The translations under genes were made by a program, and so were the position numbers. From Candidatus Multivoradales bacterium (GTDB lineage Bacteria > Acidobacteriota > Thermoanaerobaculia > Multivoradales > JAHEKO01): a stretch of DNA of 64,000 bases. Numbering within the stretch: position 1 is the first letter of the stretch; every line of letters starts with the position of its first letter. Below are positions 44,234 to 60,483 of the stretch, one piece after another. The stretch is from positions 225,879-289,878 of the forward strand of contig CBDCXM010000002.1 of NCBI GenBank assembly GCA_965223855.1. The letters are read 5' to 3'. The notes under the pieces are model-generated. The model had not been told where the DNA came from, ran no database searches, and saw only the letters and a program-made list of their open reading frames with translations.

Positions 44234-45246
44234 AGCAGCGACTCCAGTCCGTCGTCGACGAGCTCGTCGCGTCCGGAGACGCGGTCGCGGCTGCCGCCGT
44301 CGTCGGCTCTGCCGATGCGGTGTGGGCCGAGGTTCGCGCCGGCTTTCGGGATCCCGGGAGGAGCCGTCGACTGGGACGGTGGAATCGCTTCGACCTGGCG
44401 TCGCTCACCAAGCCGTGGCTTGCCACGCTGGCGCTGGTCGACGACGACGAGCTCCCCCTGTCGACGCCGCTCGGCGATCTGCTGGGGGCGACCTCGGACC
44501 TGTGGCGGGATTGCTCTCTCGAGTCGTTGCTGCGCCATCGATCCGGGCTCCCGGCATGGCGTCCGCTCTACCGGATGGCCCGCACTCCCGAGGCGGCGAT
44601 GCGTCGCCTCGCCGCGATCGAGACGACCGCCCGGGTGCCGACCTACAGCGACCTCGGATTCATCCTCTACGCACGCGCGGCCGCGGACGCCTTCGGCGAG
44701 CCGATCGAGATGCGACTTCTGCGCCGCGTCGCCGGTCGCCTCGGGCTGCGCACCGTCGGCAGCCGACCGCCAGCGTCGACTGCGGTGGCCTGTCCGCTGA
44801 CGAACGCCGTCGAGGTCGAGCTGGCGCGGGAGGCTGGATTCCGCGTCGCGGCCGCGGGATCTCCCGAGGTCGGTATCGTGCAGGACGGCAACGCTCGCTT
44901 CCTCGGTGGAGTGGCGGGACACGCGGGGCTGTTCGCGCCGGCCCGTGCGCTGTGGAGGCTGGGAGCGGAGTGGCTTCGCCCGGGGCGTCTGTTGATGCGC
45001 GAGCAGGTCGAGCGAGCGCTTTCGGGGCCCGGGCGGTATCGCCTCGGCTGGTGGCGGCCCGGCGCGGCGAAGCGTGCGACGCGTGCCCTCGGCAGGGAGT
45101 CGTTCGGCCACCATGGCTTCACCGGCGGCAGCCTGTGGGTCGATCCGGAGGCGGGCTGCGTCCTCGTGCTCCTGGCGCACCGCTCGTCGGTCGACGTCGA
45201 CATGGACCGATGGCGCAACCGCTTCCACCGCACCGCTCTGGCCTGA
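44230..45246 (+). CDS. Serine hydrolase, beta-lactamase family
   Basis: FDLASLTK (SxxK), YSD, GHAGLF, GHHGFTG. Confidence 0.88.
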   Translation: MKQRLQSVVDELVASGDAVAAAAVVGSADAVWAEVRAGFRDPGRSRRLGRWNRFDLASLTKPWLATLALVDDDELPLSTPLGDLLGATSDLWRDCSLESLLRHRSGLPAWRPLYRMARTPEAAMRRLAAIETTARVPTYSDLGFILYARAAADAFGEPIEMRLLRRVAGRLGLRTVGSRPPASTAVACPLTNAVEVELAREAGFRVAAAGSPEVGIVQDGNARFLGGVAGHAGLFAPARALWRLGAEWLRPGRLLMREQVERALSGPGRYRLGWWRPGAAKRATRALGRESFGHHGFTGGSLWVDPEAGCVLVLLAHRSSVDVDMDRWRNRFHRTALA

Positions 45247-45378
45247 GGGTCCCAGCGGCTCCCCGCTGCAGGACCGTGTCCGGCAAGCGGAGGCCTGGTG
45301 AGAACTCGAGTCCAGGCACATGGTAGAAACCAGGTGCGGAAACTACCGCCGGCCTCGCGCCGGCTCTGGAGACTCTTG

Positions 45379-46560
45379 ATGACTCAGGAACTGGTTCTCG
45401 TCAACGGAGCGCGCACGCCGATGGGAGAGTTCGGTGGCTCGCTCGCCCGAACCTCCGCTCTCGAACTGGGCGCTCATGCCGCGAAGGCGGCGCTCGAGCG
45501 CAGCGGCTACGAAGCCAACGAGATCGACCACACCGTGGTCGGCAACGCATTGCAGACGTCGGCCGACGCGATTTACGGGGCGCGGCATGTGGCGCTGGGC
45601 GCCGGTGTGCCGATCGAAACGCCTGCGGTGACCGTCAACCGGCTCTGCGGTTCCGGGATCCAGTCGATCCTGTCGGGTGTCCACCTGATCCTCGCCCGAG
45701 AGGCGACGACCTGCCTGGTGGGCGGGATCGAGAACATGAGCCAGGCGCCCCACTGCATCTGGGGAGCCCGAGAGGGGTTCAAGCTCGGTCAGGGCAAGCT
45801 GGAAGACCTGTTGATGGCTGCGCTCTACGACCCCTACTGCGGCTGCTTCATGGCGCAGACCAGCAACAACCTCGCTCACGACTTCGGCATCACCCGCGAG
45901 GAGCAGGACGCCTTCGCGCTCGGGAGCCAGCAGAAGGCGGCTGCGGCGATCGAGGCGGGGCGGTTGGCGGAGGAGATCGCGCCGATCGAGGTCGGCAAGG
46001 GCAGGCGGGCTCGGGTCGTCGATACCGACGAGCATCCGCGACCGGAGACCACGGCGGAGGTGCTCGCCGGGCTGCCGGTGGTCTTCGGCGAGGACTCGTT
46101 TGTCACCGCGGGCAACGCTTCGGGCATCGTCGACGGCGCCGCCATGATGGTGCTCACCACCGCCGAGGCCGCTGCCGCCCGGGGCGTCGAGCCGCTCGGC
46201 CGCATCCGCTCCTGGGCGGTGGTCGGTGTCGAGCCGTCGCGCATGGGTATCGGTCCCGCGCCGGCGATTCGCAAGGCGCTCGAGCGCGCCGGCATGGAGC
46301 TGTCGGATCTCGACCTGATCGAGATCAACGAGGCGTTCGCCGGCCAGATCCTCGCCGTGGTGCGCGATCTCGATCTCGACCCCGACAGGCTCAACGTCAA
46401 CGGCGGAGCGATCGCTCTCGGGCATCCGCTCGGTGCAACCGGCACCCGCATCACCCTGACGCTGCTCATGGAGCTGCGCCGCAGAGGAGGAGGCGTGGGA
46501 GTCGCTTCGGCCTGCATCGGGGGTGGTCAGGGCATTGCTCTGATCGTCGAGAGCGCCTAG
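45379..46560 (+). CDS. Acetyl-CoA acyltransferase (thiolase)
   Basis: NRLCGSG, TAGNASG, EINEAFA, GHPLGATG, CIGGGQG. Confidence 0.95.
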   Translation: MTQELVLVNGARTPMGEFGGSLARTSALELGAHAAKAALERSGYEANEIDHTVVGNALQTSADAIYGARHVALGAGVPIETPAVTVNRLCGSGIQSILSGVHLILAREATTCLVGGIENMSQAPHCIWGAREGFKLGQGKLEDLLMAALYDPYCGCFMAQTSNNLAHDFGITREEQDAFALGSQQKAAAAIEAGRLAEEIAPIEVGKGRRARVVDTDEHPRPETTAEVLAGLPVVFGEDSFVTAGNASGIVDGAAMMVLTTAEAAAARGVEPLGRIRSWAVVGVEPSRMGIGPAPAIRKALERAGMELSDLDLIEINEAFAGQILAVVRDLDLDPDRLNVNGGAIALGHPLGATGTRITLTLLMELRRRGGGVGVASACIGGGQGIALIVESA

Positions 46561-46842
46561 TCGGGCGAGGCCTTCGGACTCCGGGAGGGCCGAAGGCGAG
46601 GACGGTGGGCGGCGAGGGGCGCCCTCAGGCAGAACATCGTTGCCTTGGGAAGCTGCTGAGCGGCAGTTGTCGGTAGGTGGATGGTCTCGGTCCGGGTGCT
46701 GCGCCTTCGCGAAGGACTTCAGGTAGGGGGTTGTCGATGGGTGGGCTTGCCGGGTAGGTGTACTCGAGTTTGACCGTACCCGGAGAAGGGTGAGCGCGTG
46801 CACCGTTCGGAGGAGGCAGCCCTCGAAGCGGCCGGATTGCCT

Positions 46843-48384
46843 TCAGGTGGACTCGCCTCTCAACAGAGGGAGTCGGGCCCGGACCTCGTCCCGCTCCAGA
46901 CCGAGCTTCGCCGAACGTTCGACGAGGACGTCCAGATCGACGGGCACCGCGCCGGTGCGGAGGTACCGGTCGAGGCCGGCGATGTCGATCGGGGCGAGGC
47001 GATCGAGGGTCGAGCTTACGAGCTGTGCGGGATCCTCGCGGTAGCGCTCAAGGTCCGTGACGAGCGTCCCGAGGAGTGGCTCGCACAGCGGGTCTTCGCA
47101 GCCGAGGAAGCCTTCCCAGGCGGGCGCCTCGGGCGAACAGAGCCTTTCGCGAGCTTCGGACCAGCTCACGACGGCGAAGTAGACCGCCGCGACCGCCTGG
47201 AAGCTCTCGAGGCTCGGGGTGGTCCGATACGAGGTGGACACGAGAGCATCGATGGCGTCCGCCTCTGCGGCGAGGAGGCGGGCGTAGTGCTCCACCGACC
47301 TCGGTCCTCCTCGAGGGAGGTCGCGAGTCACCAGGTCGGCTACCCTTTCGACCGCTCGTAGTGTCCACGCGATTCCGGTCGAGAACAGCGGGTCGATGAA
47401 GGTGTAGGTGTGGGGGAGGGCCAGCCATCGCCGGCCGGCCGCCGCCGCCAGTCGATGCTGAACCCGCTCGACGGCGGCGAACGCACGTGTGGGGCGCGCT
47501 CTCCCGTAACGGGCCTGCAGGTGCGGATAGCGGGCGATGAGTTCTGCCCAGACGCCTCGGGGCTCAGCGGCCTCGCCGACCTCACCGGCCTCTTTCAAGG
47601 GCCACTGTCGCAGGAGCGCCCCGGCGCTGACACGACCGTCGTCGAATCTGAGCTCGTAGATCCAGCCTTCTTCGATCAGGTGATGCACCGCGGACCATTG
47701 CGGCGGGTAGGGGAGCCCTCGATCGGTCGATGGCTCGCCGACGCCCTCGAAGTGGGAGTAGACGAGCGACGAGCGGGTTCGCAGCCCGTTGGCGTCGCCT
47801 TCGACGAGCCCGAGTCGTCGCGCGAGCTGCCGGCGTCCGGTGGCATCGATCCACCAGGGGGTGGCAACCTGTCGCTCACCTTCCGCAGACCTCAGCGTCA
47901 GGACGGAGTGATCGTGCCGTTCGTCGATCGCGACGATCGCGGTGCGCTGTCGCACCTCCACCCCTTCGGCGAGCGCCCGTTCGACCTGACGGGCATCGAA
48001 GTCCGATCGCATCCAGTGGGTGTCCGCCACCTCGTCGTTCGGGCTCGCGGCGACGGCGAGCACTCTCGGCGGGCCGGCCTCGCCGGGGACGTGCTCGCAG
48101 AAAGTGAACCCGCGCTTGAGCCCGCAGCGCAGCTCGGGGGAGTTGCGCTGCCATCGGCCCCAGGTGGCGTGGCCGTGCAGGTCACCGAGGCCGTAGTCGG
48201 CCGCCAGCCGCTCGAGGCTCAGCGCGGCGAGGGGTGTGGAGGACTCGCCGAGGGCGAAGCGTGGGTGCTCTCCCTTCTCGACGAGCAGTACCCGGCGGCC
48301 GCGGCTCTGGAGCGCGCGGGCGAGGATCGTGCCGCCGAAGCCGCTGCCGGCGATGACGACGTCGTAGCGGTCCGCGGCGGACAT
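46843..48384 (-). CDS. Flavin-dependent halogenase-like oxidoreductase
   Basis: GSGFGG, HPRFALGES, GLKRGF (Lys), RSDFD, DATGR, GWIYELRF, FIDPLFSTG. Confidence 0.8.
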   Translation of the reverse strand: MSAADRYDVVIAGSGFGGTILARALQSRGRRVLLVEKGEHPRFALGESSTPLAALSLERLAADYGLGDLHGHATWGRWQRNSPELRCGLKRGFTFCEHVPGEAGPPRVLAVAASPNDEVADTHWMRSDFDARQVERALAEGVEVRQRTAIVAIDERHDHSVLTLRSAEGERQVATPWWIDATGRRQLARRLGLVEGDANGLRTRSSLVYSHFEGVGEPSTDRGLPYPPQWSAVHHLIEEGWIYELRFDDGRVSAGALLRQWPLKEAGEVGEAAEPRGVWAELIARYPHLQARYGRARPTRAFAAVERVQHRLAAAAGRRWLALPHTYTFIDPLFSTGIAWTLRAVERVADLVTRDLPRGGPRSVEHYARLLAAEADAIDALVSTSYRTTPSLESFQAVAAVYFAVVSWSEARERLCSPEAPAWEGFLGCEDPLCEPLLGTLVTDLERYREDPAQLVSSTLDRLAPIDIAGLDRYLRTGAVPVDLDVLVERSAKLGLERDEVRARLPLLRGEST

Positions 48385-48389
48385 CCGCC

Positions 48390-49427
48390 TCACGACCGAC
48401 AGTGCTCGCAGGACACCGGAGGCTCGACCCCACCTGAAGCGTTCATCGCCTCGAGCCGGCGGCGCCGGGTGTCCCTGCAGGCACCCGTGGCGCACGACCG
48501 CGGACCCGGCACCGACTCGAGATCCCAGGTGTCGAGGGTTACGACGAAGCTCGCGTCGCCGAGAGTGAGCGCCTTCTCGAAGGTCCTCTCGAGGCCCTCG
48601 AGGGTCGGAGGGGCGACTCGGCCCGCTCGCACCAGGGCTCGGATCGGAGCTTCCGACGCCCGCAGGGGGACGATCGAGACCTGGTGCACTCCCAGTTCGC
48701 GCGCGAAGCGAATCGTGGCCAGGGTCGCGGCCTCGGCCTCTTCGGGCGGAACGCCGGGTGCCGGGTGGAGAACGAAGGTGCGGACGCGCAGACCGTTGTC
48801 GAGAGCGAAGGCGGTGCTCCGGCGGATGTCCTCGAGGGTCATCTTCTTGTTGAGACTCGCCAGAGCCCCGGCGTGGGTCGTCTCGAGACCCAGCGCCAGC
48901 TCCAGCCGATGGGGGCTCGTCTCGCCGGGTGCCGGCTCGTCAGGTGCCGGCTCGTCAGGTGCCAGGCGCCTGGCGAAGTCGAGGCAGCGCTCGTCGATCA
49001 GGCGGGGATGGCACTCGACGATCACCCGCTCGAACGATGCCACCAGACGGGCGATCTCCGGCAGGTCGGCGGTGGGGACCGCTCTGCCGTCGAAGAAGTT
49101 GCTCGCGTTGTAGAGCTTGAGGTCGGTGACGTTCTGCGGAATGCCGTCGAGGCCGTCACGGATCTGCGCGGGGAGGGCGCTCTCCGGGGTGAGCCCGTCG
49201 ACGGTGTAGCGCCACAGGTCGCAGTACGTACAGGCGAACGGGCACTCAGCGCCGGTGAGGAAGAGCGTCCGCACACGGCGCCGGCCGTCCGCAGTGCGCT
49301 CGAGCTCGTCGCTCGTCCCCTGCAGCTTCCACGGGTCGAGCCTCGCTCTGGCGCTCACCGCCGGCCGCGCCTGGCGGACCGCGGAGTCGTCCCACCGCCG
49401 AGGCGGCGGCGCTTCGGACCGCGTCAC
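48390..49427 (-). CDS. Radical SAM protein (TIGR01210/RaSEA-like)
   Basis: CPFACTYC, KLYNASNFFD, VECHP, ALGLET, LNK; GTG start overlaps the upstream stop. Confidence 0.82.
   Translation of the reverse strand: MTRSEAPPPRRWDDSAVRQARPAVSARARLDPWKLQGTSDELERTADGRRRVRTLFLTGAECPFACTYCDLWRYTVDGLTPESALPAQIRDGLDGIPQNVTDLKLYNASNFFDGRAVPTADLPEIARLVASFERVIVECHPRLIDERCLDFARRLAPDEPAPDEPAPGETSPHRLELALGLETTHAGALASLNKKMTLEDIRRSTAFALDNGLRVRTFVLHPAPGVPPEEAEAATLATIRFARELGVHQVSIVPLRASEAPIRALVRAGRVAPPTLEGLERTFEKALTLGDASFVVTLDTWDLESVPGPRSCATGACRDTRRRRLEAMNASGGVEPPVSCEHCRS
48928..48963. repeat. 15-bp tandem repeat (2.4 copies) inside the radical SAM gene
   Basis: GGTGCCGGCTCGTCA x2 plus GGTGCC; encodes APDEPAPDEPAP. 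Confidence 0.85.
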
Positions 49428-50755
49428 CCGGCCGAATGGAGCGCCGCGAAGTGGCGCCGATAGGCGCCCTCGTCGTGCGCGAACAGTCGGGCGAAGGTCG
49501 AAGACTCGACCGCACCCTCCTGAAACCGACGCTTCGGGTAGATCGGCATCCGCCGGCCGAAGTGCGCCTCGATGCCGCGTCTCACCACCTCGCCCTTGAG
49601 CTCGTACAGCTTCTCGTGGGAGCCGCCGGTGAGCGTCTTGAAGGGGATCGCTTCGGCGACGGCGATCACCTGCGGCTGGGTGAAGGGACTGAAGCCCTCG
49701 AAGCCGAAGTGTCGCGCCGGAGCGTAGGTCCTCACGCAGCCTCGGGAGTAGCCGCCACTGTAGGTGAGGGAGTGCTTGATCGAGTGCACGCCCCAACCCT
49801 CCTGATAGAGCATCGAGTTGTTGACGACGCTACGGATCGTGAGCTCAGCGTTCTCCTCGATCGGGTAGTCCTTGAGGTTCTCGTCGCCACCGTCACCGTC
49901 GACGAGCAGCTTCCACTCCGGGTAGCGCTGCCGGAGCGCCTCGAGCAGCGCCAGATTCACGGTCGCACATTCGACGTCTCGCGGCTTGTAGTCCTCGATC
50001 GTGGCGACCGCCGCCATCGGGTCGAGCGCGCTCGACGGGACCTCGACAGCCTCGCCGAGAAAGTCGAGGTCGAGTTCGCGCAGGAAGGCGCGCGCCTGTT
50101 CGAGATCGGGCCCTCCGCCATCGACCGCGAGGGTGAACGCCTTGAGGCGTGCCGCGCTCCGGCCGGAGGCGAGAAGGAGTTCGTGCAGCGCCACCAGCAC
50201 GGCGCCGCTGTCGGCACCGCCGGAGAACAGGACCCCGATCGGCTCGTCGTCGTCCTGGCGCTCCAGCCACGAACGAAGGCTCTCTGCCAGCGCGCCGACG
50301 TAGCGTCGGCCGATCTCGTCGAGGTCGGCCGGCAGCGTCGCCATCTCGGGATCGAAGTACTTGGTGTACGTCGGGTTGGGGTCGGGGCACCCGAGCAATC
50401 TGAGCTGGGTGACGTAGTGGGCTGGAGCCATGCGGGTGTAGGCGGGATGAAACTGGTCGCCGTAGCCCTTCTCCTCGAGGAAGGCGGCGATGGCGTCGAT
50501 CCGGTCGGCGACGACCAGGAGCGGGCCCGCCTCCTGCTTGGCGAGGAAGTAGCGCAGCGGCCGATCGAGACTGCGGGCGAGCAGCACCCGCTCGCCGTCG
50601 CGCGCGACGAGAGCGTACGAGCCGCGCGCCTCCCTCAGGCGATCGACGTCGCCGTCGAGCATCGCCTGCTCGAGCTCCGAGCGTTCGCCGTCGAGAAGCC
50701 GGTCGGAATCGGGGTTCAGCAGCGACACGAGGTCGTGGATCGGGGCGGTCTTCAT
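49424..50755 (-). CDS. Asparagine-synthetase-related ATP pyrophosphatase
   Basis: PP-loop FSGGADS, DGDGGDE, SPF..K..KRRFQEG; no N-terminal Cys; SD AAGGAG. Confidence 0.85.
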   Translation of the reverse strand: MKTAPIHDLVSLLNPDSDRLLDGERSELEQAMLDGDVDRLREARGSYALVARDGERVLLARSLDRPLRYFLAKQEAGPLLVVADRIDAIAAFLEEKGYGDQFHPAYTRMAPAHYVTQLRLLGCPDPNPTYTKYFDPEMATLPADLDEIGRRYVGALAESLRSWLERQDDDEPIGVLFSGGADSGAVLVALHELLLASGRSAARLKAFTLAVDGGGPDLEQARAFLRELDLDFLGEAVEVPSSALDPMAAVATIEDYKPRDVECATVNLALLEALRQRYPEWKLLVDGDGGDENLKDYPIEENAELTIRSVVNNSMLYQEGWGVHSIKHSLTYSGGYSRGCVRTYAPARHFGFEGFSPFTQPQVIAVAEAIPFKTLTGGSHEKLYELKGEVVRRGIEAHFGRRMPIYPKRRFQEGAVESSTFARLFAHDEGAYRRHFAALHSAG

Positions 50756-50864
50756 GTTCGGTGGGCTCCTTTCGGACGGCGGTTCCGCGCGGGGAGGCTA
50801 GCAGATCCCGGTTGAGCCGAAGCGGCGGCTCCGGGGGCATGAGAGGGGCGACGCAGCCGCCGAA

Positions 50865-53063
50865 TCACTCGATCGGTGGGAGGGGAGAGGAGCGACGCCA
50901 CCAGCGCCGTTGAGGGGGCCGGGACTTGCGGTGAAAGAGGAACCTCTCGGCGCCTTTGCGCTCGCGGGCGAGCCGGAGGCCGGTCCCCACGTCGACCCAG
51001 TGCTCGACGACCGAATCCGGTCTGCGGGGGGACCAGGGGCCGAGGCGTGGCGCGGCATCCTCGACGAAGGCTCTCCAGATCGGGGCGGCCGCTCGCGCCC
51101 CGGAAAGGCCCAACGGGCTCGCGTCGTCGAGGCCGACCCATACGACCGTCACGAGTTGCCCGGAACCGCCCGCGTACCAGGCGTCTCGCAGGTCGGACGA
51201 CGTGCCCGTCTTGCCGAAGGTCACCGCCGCACCCTCCTCGCGGGCGAGGAGGTCGACCACGAGATAGGTGGCTGCGGGCGAGGCCACCTTGCTGGTACCC
51301 GAGTCACGGAGCCAGATGCGGCGGCCGGCCGGTGTCCAGGCGCGGTGGGCAACGTCGGGTCGGCGGATCCGTCCACCGCCGAGGAGCGCGGTGTAGGCGG
51401 TCGCAAGCTCCAGAGGGCTCGTCTCGATCGCTCCGAGGACGAAAGAGGGCGGCGGATCGGGGGGCAGGGCGAGTCCGGCCCGCCGCAGTCGGCGGGCGGT
51501 GGCGTCGAAGCCGCACCATCGGGCGAGGCGGACGAGCGGGACGTTGAGCGATCGTTCGAGAGCGTCGCGCACCGTCACCACACCCCGGAACTGGCGGTCG
51601 TCGTTCTGAGGCGACCAATCTCCCGCCGGCAGCTCGAGGGTCAGCGGCTCGTCACGAATGCGTCGCGATGGGAACACCGCGTCCCGTCGGCCGCAGGCGT
51701 CGAGAGCCTCGAGGGCGACTAGCGGTTTGAGGGTCGAGCCGGGTTGGCGACGGGCGTTGCGGGCGCGATCGAACTCTCCAGGCCTGGCCGGGTCACCGCC
51801 GACGTAGGCGACCACCGCGCCGGTCGTGGCATCGAGTGCGACGAGGGCGGCCTGGAGCTCCCGGCCGCGTAGTCCGCGATGGTCGCGGCGCAGCCGCTCG
51901 AGGCCGTCTCGCACCGCCTCCTCGGCGAGACGCTGGAGCGCCGGATCGAGGGTCGCCTCGACCCGCGCCCCCCTCTCCTCGGCGCCGAGCTCGGAACCGA
52001 GCCAGCGTAGATAGTGCCGGGCGGGTGGCGGCTCGATCCGGCCGGGGCGGACGGGAGGAAGCCGCCGGCGGGCGCGTGCCAGCTCCGCCGGGTCGATCCA
52101 GCCTTCCGCTTCTGAAGCCTCCTCCTCGAGCTTGTCGAGGACCCTGCGATAACGCGGTTCGACCGCCTCGGGACTGCGCAGCGGCGACATGCGGTTGGGA
52201 GCCTGCACGATCGCGGCGAGCACCGCCCCTTCGGCGAGGCTCAGCTGCCGGGGCGACTTCGAGTAGTAGGCGCGTGCCGCGGCGGCGAGGCCGTAGAGAC
52301 TTACGCCGTCGACGTGCCCGTAGTAGACCGAGTTGAGGTAGGCCTCGAGGATCTCCTCCTTGGTGTGTTCCGCTTCGAGAGCGAGCGCCCTGACCGCCTC
52401 CGACGCCTTGCGCCCCAGCGAGCGGCGCGGTGAGAGGTCGCGGAGCTTGATGAGCTGCTGGGTGATCGTGCTCCCACCCTGGACGACTCCACCCGACCTG
52501 ACGTTGGCCAGCAACGCCCTGGCGATGGCCCGGCCGTCGATGCCGCGATGCTCGAAGAAGCGGGCATCCTCGATCGCGAGGAGCGGTCTCCAGACATGCT
52601 CCGGGATGCGGTCGAAGTCGATCCATCGCCCCTGGAAGCGAGATTCGTCGAAGCTCGTTGCGAGCAGCTCTCCCTCGATCTGGAACCGTTCGAGGCGCTG
52701 CTCGGAAGCCGATTCTCCGGGCTCCGATCGAAGGCCGACGACGGTTCCATGAGGGCGCTCCAGTGCGAGACCGAGCAGCCGGGCGTCGCGGCCCGGCGAA
52801 GCCCGCCGGTAGACCCAGAAGTTGTCGTGCCCCCAGAAGAACTCGCCCGGGCTCGAGGGGAGCTCACGGACCCGGGAGTATCCGAGGGCCTCCAACCGGC
52901 CTGCGAGATCGAGATCGCCGACCCGTGCGCGGGGAGGGGCGACCAGTGGCGTCGAGTAGACGCGGACTTCGTTGCGCCCGAGGCGGTCGCGCAGCGACTC
53001 CGCCGCCATCGGGCCGGCCGAGGAGATCGCGAGCGCAACGACGAGCGGCAGAGGGCGGATCAT
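50865..53063 (-). CDS. mrcB: Bifunctional transglycosylase/transpeptidase (PBP1b-like)
   Basis: UB2H-like region, EDARFFEH, QGGSTITQQL, RQPGSTLK, SLN, KTG; TACAAT 6 nt before ATG. Confidence 0.85.
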   Translation of the reverse strand: MIRPLPLVVALAISSAGPMAAESLRDRLGRNEVRVYSTPLVAPPRARVGDLDLAGRLEALGYSRVRELPSSPGEFFWGHDNFWVYRRASPGRDARLLGLALERPHGTVVGLRSEPGESASEQRLERFQIEGELLATSFDESRFQGRWIDFDRIPEHVWRPLLAIEDARFFEHRGIDGRAIARALLANVRSGGVVQGGSTITQQLIKLRDLSPRRSLGRKASEAVRALALEAEHTKEEILEAYLNSVYYGHVDGVSLYGLAAAARAYYSKSPRQLSLAEGAVLAAIVQAPNRMSPLRSPEAVEPRYRRVLDKLEEEASEAEGWIDPAELARARRRLPPVRPGRIEPPPARHYLRWLGSELGAEERGARVEATLDPALQRLAEEAVRDGLERLRRDHRGLRGRELQAALVALDATTGAVVAYVGGDPARPGEFDRARNARRQPGSTLKPLVALEALDACGRRDAVFPSRRIRDEPLTLELPAGDWSPQNDDRQFRGVVTVRDALERSLNVPLVRLARWCGFDATARRLRRAGLALPPDPPPSFVLGAIETSPLELATAYTALLGGGRIRRPDVAHRAWTPAGRRIWLRDSGTSKVASPAATYLVVDLLAREEGAAVTFGKTGTSSDLRDAWYAGGSGQLVTVVWVGLDDASPLGLSGARAAAPIWRAFVEDAAPRLGPWSPRRPDSVVEHWVDVGTGLRLARERKGAERFLFHRKSRPPQRRWWRRSSPLPPIE

Positions 53064-53137
53064 CGGGCGATTGTAGTCAGCCACGGTGCGCCTTTCGGAA
53101 GGGTCGAAGGAGCTCCGCTGTGAGAGCGAGAGCGGGG

Positions 53138-53872
53138 ATGACGTCCTCATCTGTGAGGAAAGACTTGGGAGAGACCCGGACAGCCAACGGATCACGCTCG
53201 CTCCTTCGTGAGCTGGCGGCGGACGAGAGGCCTCGCGAGCGGCTGTTGCGACGGGGGTCGGAATCGCTGAGCGAAAGCGAGCTGCTGGCGATCCTCCTGC
53301 GAACGGGAGGGCCGGGCGCCTCGGCCGTCGACATGGCGCGACAGATCCTCCGTCGCTGTGGCGGGCTGGTCGGGCTGCCGGCCGCCTCGGCGGACAGCCT
53401 GCGTTGCCGCGGCGTCGGTCCGGCGAAGGTTGCGACGCTGCTCGCTGCGGTGGAGATCGGCCGCCGGCTCGCCCGCGCGCGTTTGCCTGCCCGCCGACCG
53501 CTCGACAGGCCCGAGATGGTGGCGGAGTATCTGTCGCTGCGCTATCAGTGCTCCGATCAGGAAGTGATGGGAGTGCTGTACGTCGATACCCGGCAGCGGC
53601 TGATGGGCGACCGGGAGGTGTATCGCGGGACGCTCAATCGTGCCGCCGCGGAGCCACGGTCCCTCCTGAAGACCGGTCTCCTGCGGGACGCCGCTGGGCT
53701 GATCCTCTTCCATACCCATCCGAGCGGGGATCCCAGTCCGAGCCCGGAGGACCTCGCCTTCACCCGTCGGATGGCGGAGGCGGGGGACATCGTCGGAGTG
53801 AGACTCATCGACCATCTGATCCTCGGCAGCGCGGGAAGATGGGTCTCCTTGCGGCAACGGGGTGCGTGGTAG
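53138..53872 (+). CDS. radC: RadC/JAB domain protein
   Basis: RPRERL, ELLAILLRTG, GVGPAK, HTHPSGDPSPSPED, DHLI. Confidence 0.93.
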   Translation: MTSSSVRKDLGETRTANGSRSLLRELAADERPRERLLRRGSESLSESELLAILLRTGGPGASAVDMARQILRRCGGLVGLPAASADSLRCRGVGPAKVATLLAAVEIGRRLARARLPARRPLDRPEMVAEYLSLRYQCSDQEVMGVLYVDTRQRLMGDREVYRGTLNRAAAEPRSLLKTGLLRDAAGLILFHTHPSGDPSPSPEDLAFTRRMAEAGDIVGVRLIDHLILGSAGRWVSLRQRGAW

Positions 53873-53917
53873 GTTTCCGCAGCAACGCGGCGCTCGCCGC
53901 CCTTCCCCCTCCTCGAG

Positions 53918-55828
53918 ATGAAGCCGTTCTACGTCACGACACCGATTTATTACGTCAACGCGCGGCCTCACATCGGCCACTCGTACACGACGGTCGTCTG
54001 CGACGTTCTCGCCCGCTATCAGCGTTCGGCGGGCGCGCCGACGCACTTCCTGACCGGCACCGACGAACACGGGCAGAAGATCGAGCGCGCCGCCATCGAG
54101 CGAGGGATCGCGCCGATCGAGCTCGCCGACGAGGTGGTGGAGTCGTTTCGCTCGCTGTGGGAAAAGCTCGGTGTCGAGCCCGACGACTTCATTCGCACGA
54201 CCGAAGAGCGGCACAAGGCGGGGGTGCGCGAGGTGGTGCGTCGCATCGCCGAGGCCGGCGATCTCTACGTCGGCCGTCACGACGGCTGGTATTGCACCTC
54301 GTGCGAGCTCTTCTACACCGACAAGGAGCTCGACGAGGAGGAACGCTGCCCGATCCATGGTGAGAAGGCGGAGTGGCGGTCGGAGGAGAACGTCTTTTTC
54401 CGTCTGTCGCGCTTCGAGAAGCCCCTTCTCGAATGGCTCGAAGAGAACCCTCACGCCGTCCGGCCGGAGAGTCGCCGCAATGAGGTGCGAAGCTTCATCG
54501 AAAGTGGGTTGCGGGACCTCAGCGTAAGTCGCGCCGGCCTCGAGTGGGGCATCCCGTTCCCTGAACACGAGGGGCAGGCGGTTTATGTCTGGCTCGACGC
54601 CCTGACGAACTACATCAGCGCACTCGGCTTCGGCAGCGAGGATCGCTCGCTGTGGGAGCGTTTCTGGGCCTCCGACGACTCCCGCCGGGTGCATGTGATC
54701 GGCAAGGACATCCTCCGCTTCCACACGGTCTACTGGCCGGCGTTCCTGCTCTCTGCCGGGCTGCCGCTGCCGACGACCGTCTGGGTCCACGGCTGGTGGC
54801 TCGCCGACGAGCACAAGGTCTCGAAGTCGAGTGGTCGGATCGTGCGTCTCGACGGACTGATCGAGCAGTTCGGCACCGACGCCGTCCGCTACTTCCTGCT
54901 GCGCGACATGGTCTTCGGCCAGGACGCTTCGTTCTCGGACGAAGCCTTCATCGAGCGCTACAACAGCGAGTTGGCCAACGGCCTCGGCAACACCCTGAGC
55001 CGACTGGTGACGCTGTCGGGGCGCGCCTTCGACGGCAAGACACCTCCGGTCCCCTGCGACGACAACCCGCTGATCGAGCGGGCCGCGGTCGCCGTGGAGG
55101 CGTATCGCGAGGCGATGGGCAACCTGCAGTTCGACCGGGCGCTGAGGGCGGTAGCCGGGCTGATCAGCGACGTGAACCAGTACCTGGTCGAGCGGGAGCC
55201 CTGGAAGCACCTGCGCGACGAGGAGCAGCGGGTGTGGCTGTCGCGGGTGCTGTGGAACGGCCTCGAGGCGGTCCGGATCGCCGCCACCTGCCTGGTTCCG
55301 GTCATGCCGACGTCGGCACCGGCCGTGCTGGCCGCGATCGGTGTCGATGGACAGGCCGACCTCTCGACCCTGGGTTGGGGCGGGCTCGCCAACGATCGAC
55401 CGCTGCCGAAGACCGAAGCCCTGTTCCCGCGCATCGACAAGGAGAAGTACCTCGCCGAGGCGCAGGCCGCCGCCGACGAGGCGAGCGGCGATGCCGCGGA
55501 GGAATCGATGATCACGATCGACCAGTTCTTCGAGACCGAGCTCAAGGTGGCGACCGTCACGGCCGCCGAGGCGATTCCCAAGTCGACCAAGCTGCTGAAG
55601 CTGACGGTGGATCTGGGGGGTGAGGAGCGGACCATCGTCGCCGGAATCGCCGAGACGTACGCGCCCGACGAGCTCGTCGAGCGTCAGGTGGTCATCGTCG
55701 CCAACCTCCGGCCGGCGAAGCTGATGGGCGTCGAGTCGCAGGGGATGGTGCTTGCCGCTTCGGTGGACGGCAAGGCGAAGCTGGTCGCTCCGAGCGAGCC
55801 GGTGCCGAACGGCACCGTCGTGCGCTAA
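53918..55828 (+). CDS. metG: Methionine--tRNA ligase
   Basis: TTPIYY..HIGH, TGTDEHG, GKDILRFH, KVSKS, C-terminal tRNA-binding domain. Confidence 0.97.
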   Translation: MKPFYVTTPIYYVNARPHIGHSYTTVVCDVLARYQRSAGAPTHFLTGTDEHGQKIERAAIERGIAPIELADEVVESFRSLWEKLGVEPDDFIRTTEERHKAGVREVVRRIAEAGDLYVGRHDGWYCTSCELFYTDKELDEEERCPIHGEKAEWRSEENVFFRLSRFEKPLLEWLEENPHAVRPESRRNEVRSFIESGLRDLSVSRAGLEWGIPFPEHEGQAVYVWLDALTNYISALGFGSEDRSLWERFWASDDSRRVHVIGKDILRFHTVYWPAFLLSAGLPLPTTVWVHGWWLADEHKVSKSSGRIVRLDGLIEQFGTDAVRYFLLRDMVFGQDASFSDEAFIERYNSELANGLGNTLSRLVTLSGRAFDGKTPPVPCDDNPLIERAAVAVEAYREAMGNLQFDRALRAVAGLISDVNQYLVEREPWKHLRDEEQRVWLSRVLWNGLEAVRIAATCLVPVMPTSAPAVLAAIGVDGQADLSTLGWGGLANDRPLPKTEALFPRIDKEKYLAEAQAAADEASGDAAEESMITIDQFFETELKVATVTAAEAIPKSTKLLKLTVDLGGEERTIVAGIAETYAPDELVERQVVIVANLRPAKLMGVESQGMVLAASVDGKAKLVAPSEPVPNGTVVR

Positions 55829-59461: not shown

Positions 59462-59570
59462 TTCCAAAATCCTCCTGACTCTTTCCTGTCTTTCTCGTCG
59501 CGCGGAGACTAGCACAGAACCCCTTGATTTGACAGGGATTTGAGGGGTTTCGGTGGGCTCGATCGCGCGC

Positions 59571-60483
59571 TCAGGAGAAGACGATTCGAGGCTGCAGAAC
59601 GCCGACGTCGCGACCGATCCGCTCGCTGACGCTGGCCACGGCGACGAAGCGGCTGCGGGGGTCGAGGAGCTTGAGCCAGTCTCCCTCCTCGGCGTCGAGA
59701 CCGCGCACCAGCACCGTCTGGCCGTGGAGAATCCGACCGGCGTCCGGCGCGTCGAGAGTCACCTCCGGGAACGGGAGCCGGATGGCGTCGAAGGGCACCC
59801 AACCCGGGCCGTCCGTCGGTGCGTCGCTCTCGGCGAGCGCCTCGAGCGACACGGCATCTTCCACGTCGAAGTGGCCGACCCTGGTGCGGCGCAGCGAGGC
59901 GAGGTGAGCGCCGACTCCCGCCGCACGGCCGAGATCGTGCGCCAGGCTCCGGACGTAGGTGCCTGAGGAGCACTCGAGGCGCAAGCCGATCCGACCGTTC
60001 TCGAGCGCCGAGGTCGTCTCGAGGGAGTAGACCGTGATCTCCTTGCGTGCCTCGGGGACCTCCTCGCCCTTGCGCGCCAGTTCGTAGTACTTGCGACCGT
60101 CGATCTTCTTGGCGCTGTAGGCGGGAGCGACCTGTTCGTAGGTACCGACGAAGCGCGGCAGCAGCTCCTCCACCTCCGCCGGGTCGAGGCCATCGATCGG
60201 ATGCTCCTCGACGACGTTGCCTAGGGCGTCGTAGGTGTCGGTCACAGCGCCGAACTGCACGTCGCCCTCGTAGACCTTGGGCGCCTGGATCAGAAAGCGG
60301 GTGAGCCGGGTCGCCTTTCCCACGGTGAGCACCAGAAGGCCGGTGGCGCCCCGGGTCGAGGGTGCCGCAGTGGCCGATGCGGCGCTCGCCGAGCGCCCGT
60401 CGTGCCCGCTGGACGACGTCGTGGGACGTGCAACCGGTCGGCTTGTCGACCAGCAGCAGTCCGGAAAGCGAAGGGGCGCTCAA
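59571..60483 (-). CDS. truB: tRNA pseudouridine(55) synthase; +1 homopolymer indel near 60350
   Basis: [39 protein letters not shown]. Confidence 0.92.

Follow-up and report, generated by a model that had tools for sequence, protein, structure and literature searches.

A unit of three genes encoding an AsnB-like amide ligase, a radical S-adenosylmethionine (SAM) enzyme and a flavin-dependent enzyme of the halogenase type was found in the genome of Candidatus Multivoradales bacterium, and a comparison of homologous loci revealed that these genes are inherited together, with a linkage far beyond chance. The unit lies in a 64,000-nt stretch of contig CBDCXM010000002.1 (positions 225,879–289,878), which is called the window here and whose positions serve as coordinates below. 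Each of the three enzymes belongs to a known superfamily and yet falls outside the closest named family by the test that defines it, and the combination matches no pathway that was found. A previous sequence-only reading of the window had also been unable to assign the trio to a characterised pathway, and no description of it was found in the literature searched, where most subscription journals and supplements lay outside the search, so that an entry in a table may have been overlooked. The most probable of the readings considered, which we put forward tentatively and at less than an even chance, is that of a self-contained, cytoplasmic and usually single-copy module for ligation of an amine donor, radical cleavage of a C–N bond and halogenation of a small aromatic compound.

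Co-inheritance of the three genes

A GTDB scan gave at least 573 confirmed relatives of the ligase, and 80 loci were examined from these. They belong to Thermoanaerobaculia and other Acidobacteriota, to Gemmatimonadota and Planctomycetota, and to one Bacteroidetes record and one record titled Deltaproteobacteria; the carriers include a cultured organism, Maioricimonas sp. JC845 (locus L077). Linkage was counted in the 55 loci having at least 3 kb downstream of the ligase gene: the radical SAM gene was found nearby in 53 of them, the flavoenzyme gene in 51 and both in 50, in the same order and on the same strand. All three genes were also present in 18 of 20 further regions. The sequence-only reading had staked its operon on the genes being found together elsewhere, and they proved to be co-conserved across phyla. 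The genes are closely packed, with a gap of at most 20 nt between the ligase and radical SAM genes in 47 of 57 cases and between the radical SAM and flavoenzyme genes in 41 of 45, mostly as 4-bp overlaps; these counts depend on start codons picked by the analysis's own rule. Of three long matches that might be taken for gene fusions, two look like starts called too far upstream and one like a gene call joined across a frameshift; this search gives weak evidence that fusions are absent. No conserved fourth gene was found among the clustered neighbours of the trio loci, and the modABC, SusC/SusD, AhpD-like and penicillin-binding protein (PBP) genes seen there are local only.

Within the host's class, the ligase was detected in 80 of 201 genomes, with one match in each apart from one split gene. 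By family, it was found in 29/29 genomes of f4, 5/5 of f1, 19/27 of f14, 13/19 of f17, 1/48 of f12, 0/28 of f15 and 0/20 of f18. A flavoenzyme orthologue, defined by E < 1e-100 (five genomes with weaker paralogues alone were dropped from the 79 listed), was present in 73 of the 80 ligase-positive genomes versus 1 of the 121 ligase-negative ones, and the seven ligase-positive genomes without it are assemblies of 120–470 contigs. At the phylum level, the distribution is patchy: close matches of the radical SAM enzyme were found in 8/201 genomes around G201, 17/201 around G202 and 14/171 around G205, each count including the centre genome. The tallies take in the unpublished genomes G004, G103, G134, G174, G178, G583 and G628; two of these, G004 and G103, belong to the 80 carriers and are the source of loci L088 and L083.

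In a ligase tree of 43 rows, Acidobacteriota and Gemmatimonadota are intermixed on supported branches, which fits transfer plus long retention without proving it. The sole f12 carrier (G162, locus L084 on contig C91) has SusD and large ASPIC neighbours that are 58–68% identical to Gemmatimonadaceae proteins; its ligase contig may be bin contamination or a recent transfer and was left out of the evidence on co-transfer. No viral copies of the radical SAM or ligase genes were found, and the plasmids searched contained no ligase, with two full-length distant matches and one weak partial match of the radical SAM enzyme.

In the window (Table 1), the ligase and radical SAM open reading frames (ORFs) overlap by 4 bp (GTGA, 49424–49427), and the radical SAM and flavoenzyme ORFs are separated by 5 bp (48385–48389). 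This layout of same-strand ORFs, the operon's own Shine–Dalgarno sequence and an upstream -10-like box had all been read correctly before, but the box does not stand out as a promoter: TGnTAnnnT is not a feature of the family, occurring upstream of 3 of 69 homologues versus 3.05 in shuffles, and a promoter and terminator scan gave no site above chance. The 9-mer TGCTAGCCT recurs letter for letter, at a similar distance, upstream of the homologue at locus L004. As had been observed, no transporter, regulator, nonribosomal peptide or polyketide synthase or precursor gene was seen adjoining the trio in the window; a PBP1-type gene lies 109 bp upstream of the ligase gene on the same strand, and the trio is followed downstream by a thiolase gene in convergent orientation. 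The GC content of the trio is like that of the remaining window, and Rfam gave no match within positions 45000–54000. Elsewhere in the window, a truB-like gene (59509–60483) appears to be split, with its N-terminal motif in the ORF at 59509–60483 and the rest in the ORF at 59571–60332, possibly through a frameshift or an assembly error.

Table 1. Features of the three-gene unit in the window.
Feature	Position	Strand	Remarks
AsnB-like ATP pyrophosphatase / amide ligase	49424–50755	minus	open ORF, 443 aa
Radical SAM enzyme	48390–49427	minus	open ORF, 345 aa, GTG start
Flavin-dependent halogenase-type enzyme, PltM/CtcP class	46843–48384	minus	open ORF, 513 aa
Shine–Dalgarno AAGGAG	50766–50771	minus	10 nt ahead of the ligase ATG; from sequence
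Extended -10-like box TGCTAGCCT	50795–50803	minus	possible promoter, unproven; from sequence

Ligase, radical SAM enzyme and flavoenzyme

The enzyme labels first given to the three genes were retained and refined to a truncated AsnB fold, a RaSEA/MnmL-like radical SAM enzyme and a flavoenzyme of the PltM/CtcP class. The ligase matches PF00733 (42.7 bits against a cut-off of 21; E = 7.4e-11), and its score on the AsnB equivalog TIGR01536 is 37.6 bits against a cut-off of 267.1. Its predicted model (predicted local distance difference test, pLDDT, 88) has the two-domain AsnB fold. The best match was beta-lactam synthetase (Z 25.6, 377 residues aligned, root-mean-square deviation (rmsd) 3.8–4.1), tied with human ASNS (Z 24.7) and followed by E. 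coli AsnB (24.3), CarA (22.3) and TsnB9 (20.1), with no further match above Z 10.6. Despite this likeness, the sequence identity to these proteins is at most 21%; no sequence match to beta-lactam synthetase was found in the PDB, and no clavam or carbapenem cluster genes were found among the conserved neighbours of the trio. The model starts at residues 37–41 of the matched chains, so that the first ~36–40 residues of the N-terminal nucleophile domain are missing; therefore, the glutaminase N-terminus is deleted, not merely mutated. The absence of the N-terminal Cys, noticed earlier for the window protein, extends to all 72 ligases (the window protein and 71 homologues). Beta-lactam synthetase and CarA, which close a lactam intramolecularly on CEA or carboxymethylproline, are not known to carry the glutaminase Cys either.

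The PP-loop, likewise recognised before (SGGADS, residues 178–183; SGGxDS in the family), GDGGDE (287–292) and Lys408 are invariant in 72/72 ligases. They correspond to motifs in the two canonical AsnBs of the host genome, which start with MCG, and the PP-loop, G[DE]G[AG]DE and the late Lys at the catalytic position are shared with the enzymes matched by fold. In the AsnB-type family, an acyl-adenylate is formed and then attacked by an amine. After the DE, the ligase family has an invariant NLKDYPIEEN where the AsnBs of the host genome have LFCGY, suggesting a pocket for the substrate that differs from theirs and is strictly conserved. As for lasso peptides and other ribosomally synthesised and post-translationally modified peptides (RiPPs), no conserved precursor, RRE/PqqD or peptidase neighbours were found in the clustered loci among ORFs of at least 50 aa, and the trio proteins gave no RRE or SPASM family match. 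An apparently unrelated lasso-type set was seen ~4 kb upstream of the trio at one locus (L127:5824–9834, genome G535); labelled by eye, it consists of a 643-aa AsnB-like gene without a starting Cys and PqqD-like, B2-like and nucleotidyltransferase-like genes.

The radical SAM enzyme has the CxxxCxxC motif at C62/C66/C69, invariant in 120/120 proteins, and a C-terminal CxxC...CxxC that is present in 114–118 of 120 per position, the window protein having Cys312 instead of 314. Its best sequence family is RaSEA (TIGR01210; E = 4.9e-11), with a score of 42.4 bits, far below the equivalog cut-off of 212.15. Two homologues score 47.3 and 60.4 bits, and RaSEA is the best family for all three members of the enzyme's family that were scanned; they also give weak matches to TIGR01212 (MnmL), far below its cut-off. 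Taken together with two other bacterial RaSEA-like proteins of 172–177 bits and an alignment of a Streptomyces plasmid RaSEA-like protein to the trio family (306 columns, 99.6% probability), these weak homologue scores identify the enzyme, by sequence comparison, as a divergent sister of RaSEA.

The predicted model of the radical SAM enzyme (pLDDT 91) matched QueL (6p78; Z 16.6, rmsd 3.3, 220 residues aligned, 16% identity), MqnE (Z 16.1) and BioB (Z 15.8), which are tied, with HydE-type enzymes and PylB also among the tied matches. The top 27 fold matches are all radical SAM enzymes; RaSEA was not among the fold matches. QueL cleaves a C–N bond. It differs from the trio enzyme, which has the C-terminal four-Cys motif and fixed ligase and flavoenzyme partners. 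RaSEA is described as turning preQ0-Lys into archaeosine after the transfer of lysine by ArcS, with which it forms a complex, and ArcS is described as also taking a nucleoside-sized substrate (PMC11298593); MnmL/YhcC converts cmnm5s2U to nm5s2U (10.64898/2026.05.18.725915).

RaSEA-like genes were also observed away from the trio. In the Streptomyces plasmids pFRL3 and pFRL5 (L101:15001–26147 and L102:15001–26145), such a gene (172.6 bits on TIGR01210 in L101) is the first of a cluster with a P450, a serine hydroxymethyltransferase, a GT9 glycosyltransferase, a carbamoyltransferase, a GDSL hydrolase and a heptose adenylyltransferase. This cluster looks biosynthetic, and therefore the RaSEA family is not confined to tRNA pathways. 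Another bacterial RaSEA-like gene (177 bits; L111:208–2386, genome G312) lies directly upstream of a gene for a dimethylargininase/arginine-dihydrolase-fold protein.

The closest solved sequences to the flavoenzyme are tetracycline 7-halogenase CtcP (E = 1.1e-35) and the phloroglucinol halogenase PltM (E = 1.7e-33), with a profile E-value of 1e-75, and we take PrnC to be a further close relative. All of the 14 top PDB profile matches are halogenases except one labelled flavoprotein/dehydrogenase. GxGxxG and the tunnel motif FxxPxxSxG (FxDPLFSxG in PltM/CtcP terms) were each found in 50 of 51 flavoenzymes and Lys90, the lysine of GxKxGF, in all 51; K90 aligns to the lysine of PltM GIKLG (the K87 segment). 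PltM is reported to be inactive as K87A and to halogenate free phenolics and anilines, the former being chlorinated, brominated and iodinated (PMC6424973). In contrast to PltM and CtcP, the WxWxIP motif is altered in all 51 proteins: W.[WY].L[PR]F stands in its place in 49, with the second Trp replaced by Tyr in 41, and no polyketide, phloroglucinol or tryptophan pathway genes are nearby. In PMC10696468 and PMC12871659, WxWxIP is proposed to prevent monooxygenation, with the roles of its residues given as unclear, and the scheme of the latter accepts halogenase members with FxxPxxSxG "with or without" WxWxI. From these features, the trio flavoenzyme likely performs halogenation.

Proposed chemistry and its alternatives

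The analysis demonstrates the gene unit, the folds, the catalytic motifs and the co-inheritance; every chemical step is inferred, as are the sequence of the steps and the identities of donor, substrate, halide and product. The ligase would adenylate a carboxylate and couple it to the nitrogen of a donor amine, which would not be glutamine and is probably an amino acid. The RaSEA-like enzyme would then take a hydrogen beside the donor nitrogen and cut the C–N bond, so that the nitrogen stays on the substrate, as in the ArcS–RaSEA pair. The flavoenzyme, using FADH2 from a reductase encoded elsewhere, would halogenate an electron-rich ring of the phenol, aniline or pyrrole type. A substrate of core metabolism would thus become a halogenated small molecule. 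The substrate is probably a common metabolite, because no gene for its supply and no exporter lies near the trio; this consideration and the evidence leaning away from RNA, given below, speak for this reading, as do the tight gene unit, the intact adenylation motifs of a ligase that has lost its glutaminase end in a genome with separate canonical AsnBs, the RaSEA kinship of the radical SAM enzyme and the conserved K90 and tunnel motif of the flavoenzyme.

Several observations count against it. Making a plain amide with two enzymes seems uneconomical compared with a glutamine-dependent AsnB. The RaSEA match is weak (42–60 bits versus the 172–177 of the two other bacterial proteins), and MqnE and BioB, whose chemistry is different, match the fold as well as QueL does. 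WxWxIP is missing from the flavoenzymes. The flavoenzyme gene is not nearby in 4 of the 55 loci and the radical SAM gene in 2, and the clustered neighbours include no conserved gene for substrate supply, for a transporter or for a reductase. In addition, retention in single copy throughout a clade, as in f4, fits a housekeeping modification better than it fits a specialised metabolite.

The tied folds and the RaSEA score far under the cut-off also suit a different small halogenated product, one that retains the amide or a lactam, with C–C formation, a ring change or decarboxylation as the task of the radical SAM enzyme. The rank of beta-lactam synthetase as the top ligase fold match points the same way, but it is tied with human ASNS, and RaSEA is the best family by sequence for all three radical enzymes scanned. 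We regard this version as unlikely, and as the best placed of the alternatives.

Less likely than a retained amide or lactam is that the trio modifies a tRNA or rRNA base by analogy with ArcS–RaSEA, the base being halogenated or oxidised. In favour of this, tRNA is the substrate of both RaSEA and MnmL, several families have the trio throughout and in single copy, conservation of the ligase is unusually high (mean column identity 67%), and even a nucleoside-sized substrate is accepted by ArcS (PMC11298593). On the other hand, no RNA-binding family was detected in the three trio proteins, and they are acidic (median isoelectric points 5.8–6.2), which leans modestly away from an RNA substrate; the solved enzymes of the PltM/CtcP class act on small molecules, and the phylum-level distribution is patchy. 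The 7-deazaguanine version fails, since a queC match is present in 35 of the 80 ligase-positive genomes of the class and absent in 45, so that the trio neither needs nor replaces QueC, and both roles were ruled out. Genome G000 (92% complete) has tgt and queA, with one TGT-family match, and no queC match; the ArcS/preQ0-Lys tRNA context that RaSEA requires was thus not found there or in the 45 carriers. Of 49 further genomes from the host's order, one gave a queC match, and that below the cut-off; with tgt and queA present in G000, this suggests order-wide salvage of the precursor. Among the products left side by side by the sequence-only reading (a metabolite, a cofactor or an RNA or protein modification), the tests lean towards a small molecule without settling the choice.

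The trio might instead make a cofactor or ligand for, or mature, secreted CRTAC1/ASPIC-UnbV propellers, whose partners would be multiheme cytochromes and, in some cases, a vanadium haloperoxidase; we consider this improbable, slightly more so than RNA modification. At least two PF07593 matches were found in 80/80 carriers versus 16/121 non-carriers of the class sample of 201, in which 49/121 non-carriers have at least one match, and around G202 a match was found in 16/17 carriers versus 61/184 non-carriers. However, related genomes are not independent, and lifestyle could account for the co-occurrence. A propeller gene lies in the flank of 30 of 100 trio loci, nearly all Gemmatimonadota-like. 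The surroundings of the trio in Gemmatimonadota encode SusC/SusD, large FG-GAP/ASPIC proteins and multiheme cytochromes, and also contain an RnfD-like gene, presumably UnbU/E5. At L127, CRTAC1 and RnfD-like genes run into the ligase gene, overlapping, and a vanadium haloperoxidase is present in the L125 and L128 regions (match to 4cit, E = 1.8e-63), with a weaker relative in L029. Against this, no ASPIC gene adjoins the trio in the window, and physical linkage is nearly confined to Gemmatimonadota. The 20 PF07593 matches of G000 are mostly in one cluster on another contig. The protein-cofactor maturases QhpG, LodB and GoxB are among the top five NCBIfam matches of the flavoenzyme, but at E = 1e-14 or weaker, far below PltM/CtcP.

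Three candidate partners fail to track the trio. The RnfD/UnbU-like protein is not obligate, being found in 2/29 f4 genomes but 22/48 of f12. The tetraheme cytochrome was found in 18/201 genomes of the class, of which 16 are carriers (16/80), and is nested, not required. A 642-aa CRTAC1 subfamily had no orthologue in 4/4 carriers or 5 non-carriers tested, and the ligase was seen in 5 of 80 metagenomic loci of this subfamily. In 26 CRTAC1 proteins, the conserved residues are almost all Asp, Gly or Asn of the repeats, and no obvious modification site was found.

Further observations concern these neighbourhoods. Labelled by eye, the G000 cluster (C9:1856000–1888000) contains about a dozen FG-GAP/ASPIC-UnbV and tetratricopeptide repeat genes and encloses FeoB-like and metal-regulator-like ones. 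Three of its copies share 51–54% identity with a CRTAC1 protein encoded close to the trio in Gemmatimonadota. At C3:11311–15235 of G000, a gene for a membrane-anchored multiheme cytochrome overlaps a CRTAC1/ASPIC gene, an arrangement of two genes that also borders the trio in several Gemmatimonadota. An AhpD-like gene (TIGR01926) recurs, in two pieces, near the Gemmatimonadota trio (L026:13745–14323; L126:6942–7529). In L026, the first piece ends with CVF and then TGA, beyond which the reading frame seems to go on, so that the TGA may encode the selenocysteine of a CxxU motif.

The altered WxWxIP motif, with its frequent Tyr, is what favours a flavoenzyme acting as a hydroxylase or oxidase, with a product free of halogen, which could be combined with every other reading. 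The lysine at the catalytic position and FxxPxxSxG are kept, the replacement of the motif is conservative, and the top PDB profile matches are halogenases bar one; we hold this possibility to be improbable as well, a little below the link to the propellers. Most doubtful of all is the extended proposal that the trio makes a cofactor or ligand carrying a halogen, perhaps bromine or iodine, through ligation and cleavage in the manner of ArcS–RaSEA, and that this molecule serves secreted CRTAC1/ASPIC-UnbV, multiheme cytochrome and haloperoxidase machinery in Acidobacteriota, Gemmatimonadota and Planctomycetota, as an unrecognised halogen-handling system distantly tied to enediyne UnbV/UnbU.

Relation to known systems and significance

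Among the known systems, the ArcS–RaSEA pair of Euryarchaeota resembles the trio in combining an amine-transferring enzyme with a radical SAM enzyme of the RaSEA family that carries CxxxCxxC. It differs in that the partner in the trio is AsnB-like and not a TGT-like ArcS, the third gene is of the halogenase type and the hosts are bacteria; the score of 42 against a cut-off of 212 and the 45 carriers without a queC match set the two further apart. The enediyne UnbV/UnbU (E4/E5) cassette and the loci combining SusC/SusD, propellers and vanadium haloperoxidases share with the Gemmatimonadota neighbourhoods the PF07593 propellers, the RnfD-like protein and the 4cit-like haloperoxidase, but no enediyne polyketide synthase was seen, and such genes are absent from the neighbourhood in this window. 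Gui et al. (2024) are said to have described a role of the UnbV/UnbU cassette in iodination.

Hundreds of species (at least 573 matches) among the abundant bacteria of soil and sea carry this orphan three-enzyme pathway, which is fixed in whole families. As a 3.9-kb unit without a conserved extra gene, it is directly testable by expression. The connection to ASPIC/CRTAC1 propellers may help to approach a large family of proteins whose function is not known. If the reading as amine-donor ligation, radical C–N cleavage and halogenation is true, the logic of archaeosine synthesis, in which ligation is followed by radical cleavage, would extend beyond tRNA and archaea, and the trio would represent a widespread natural source of organohalogens in poorly cultured phyla, with a new halogenase clade in which WxWxIP is altered.

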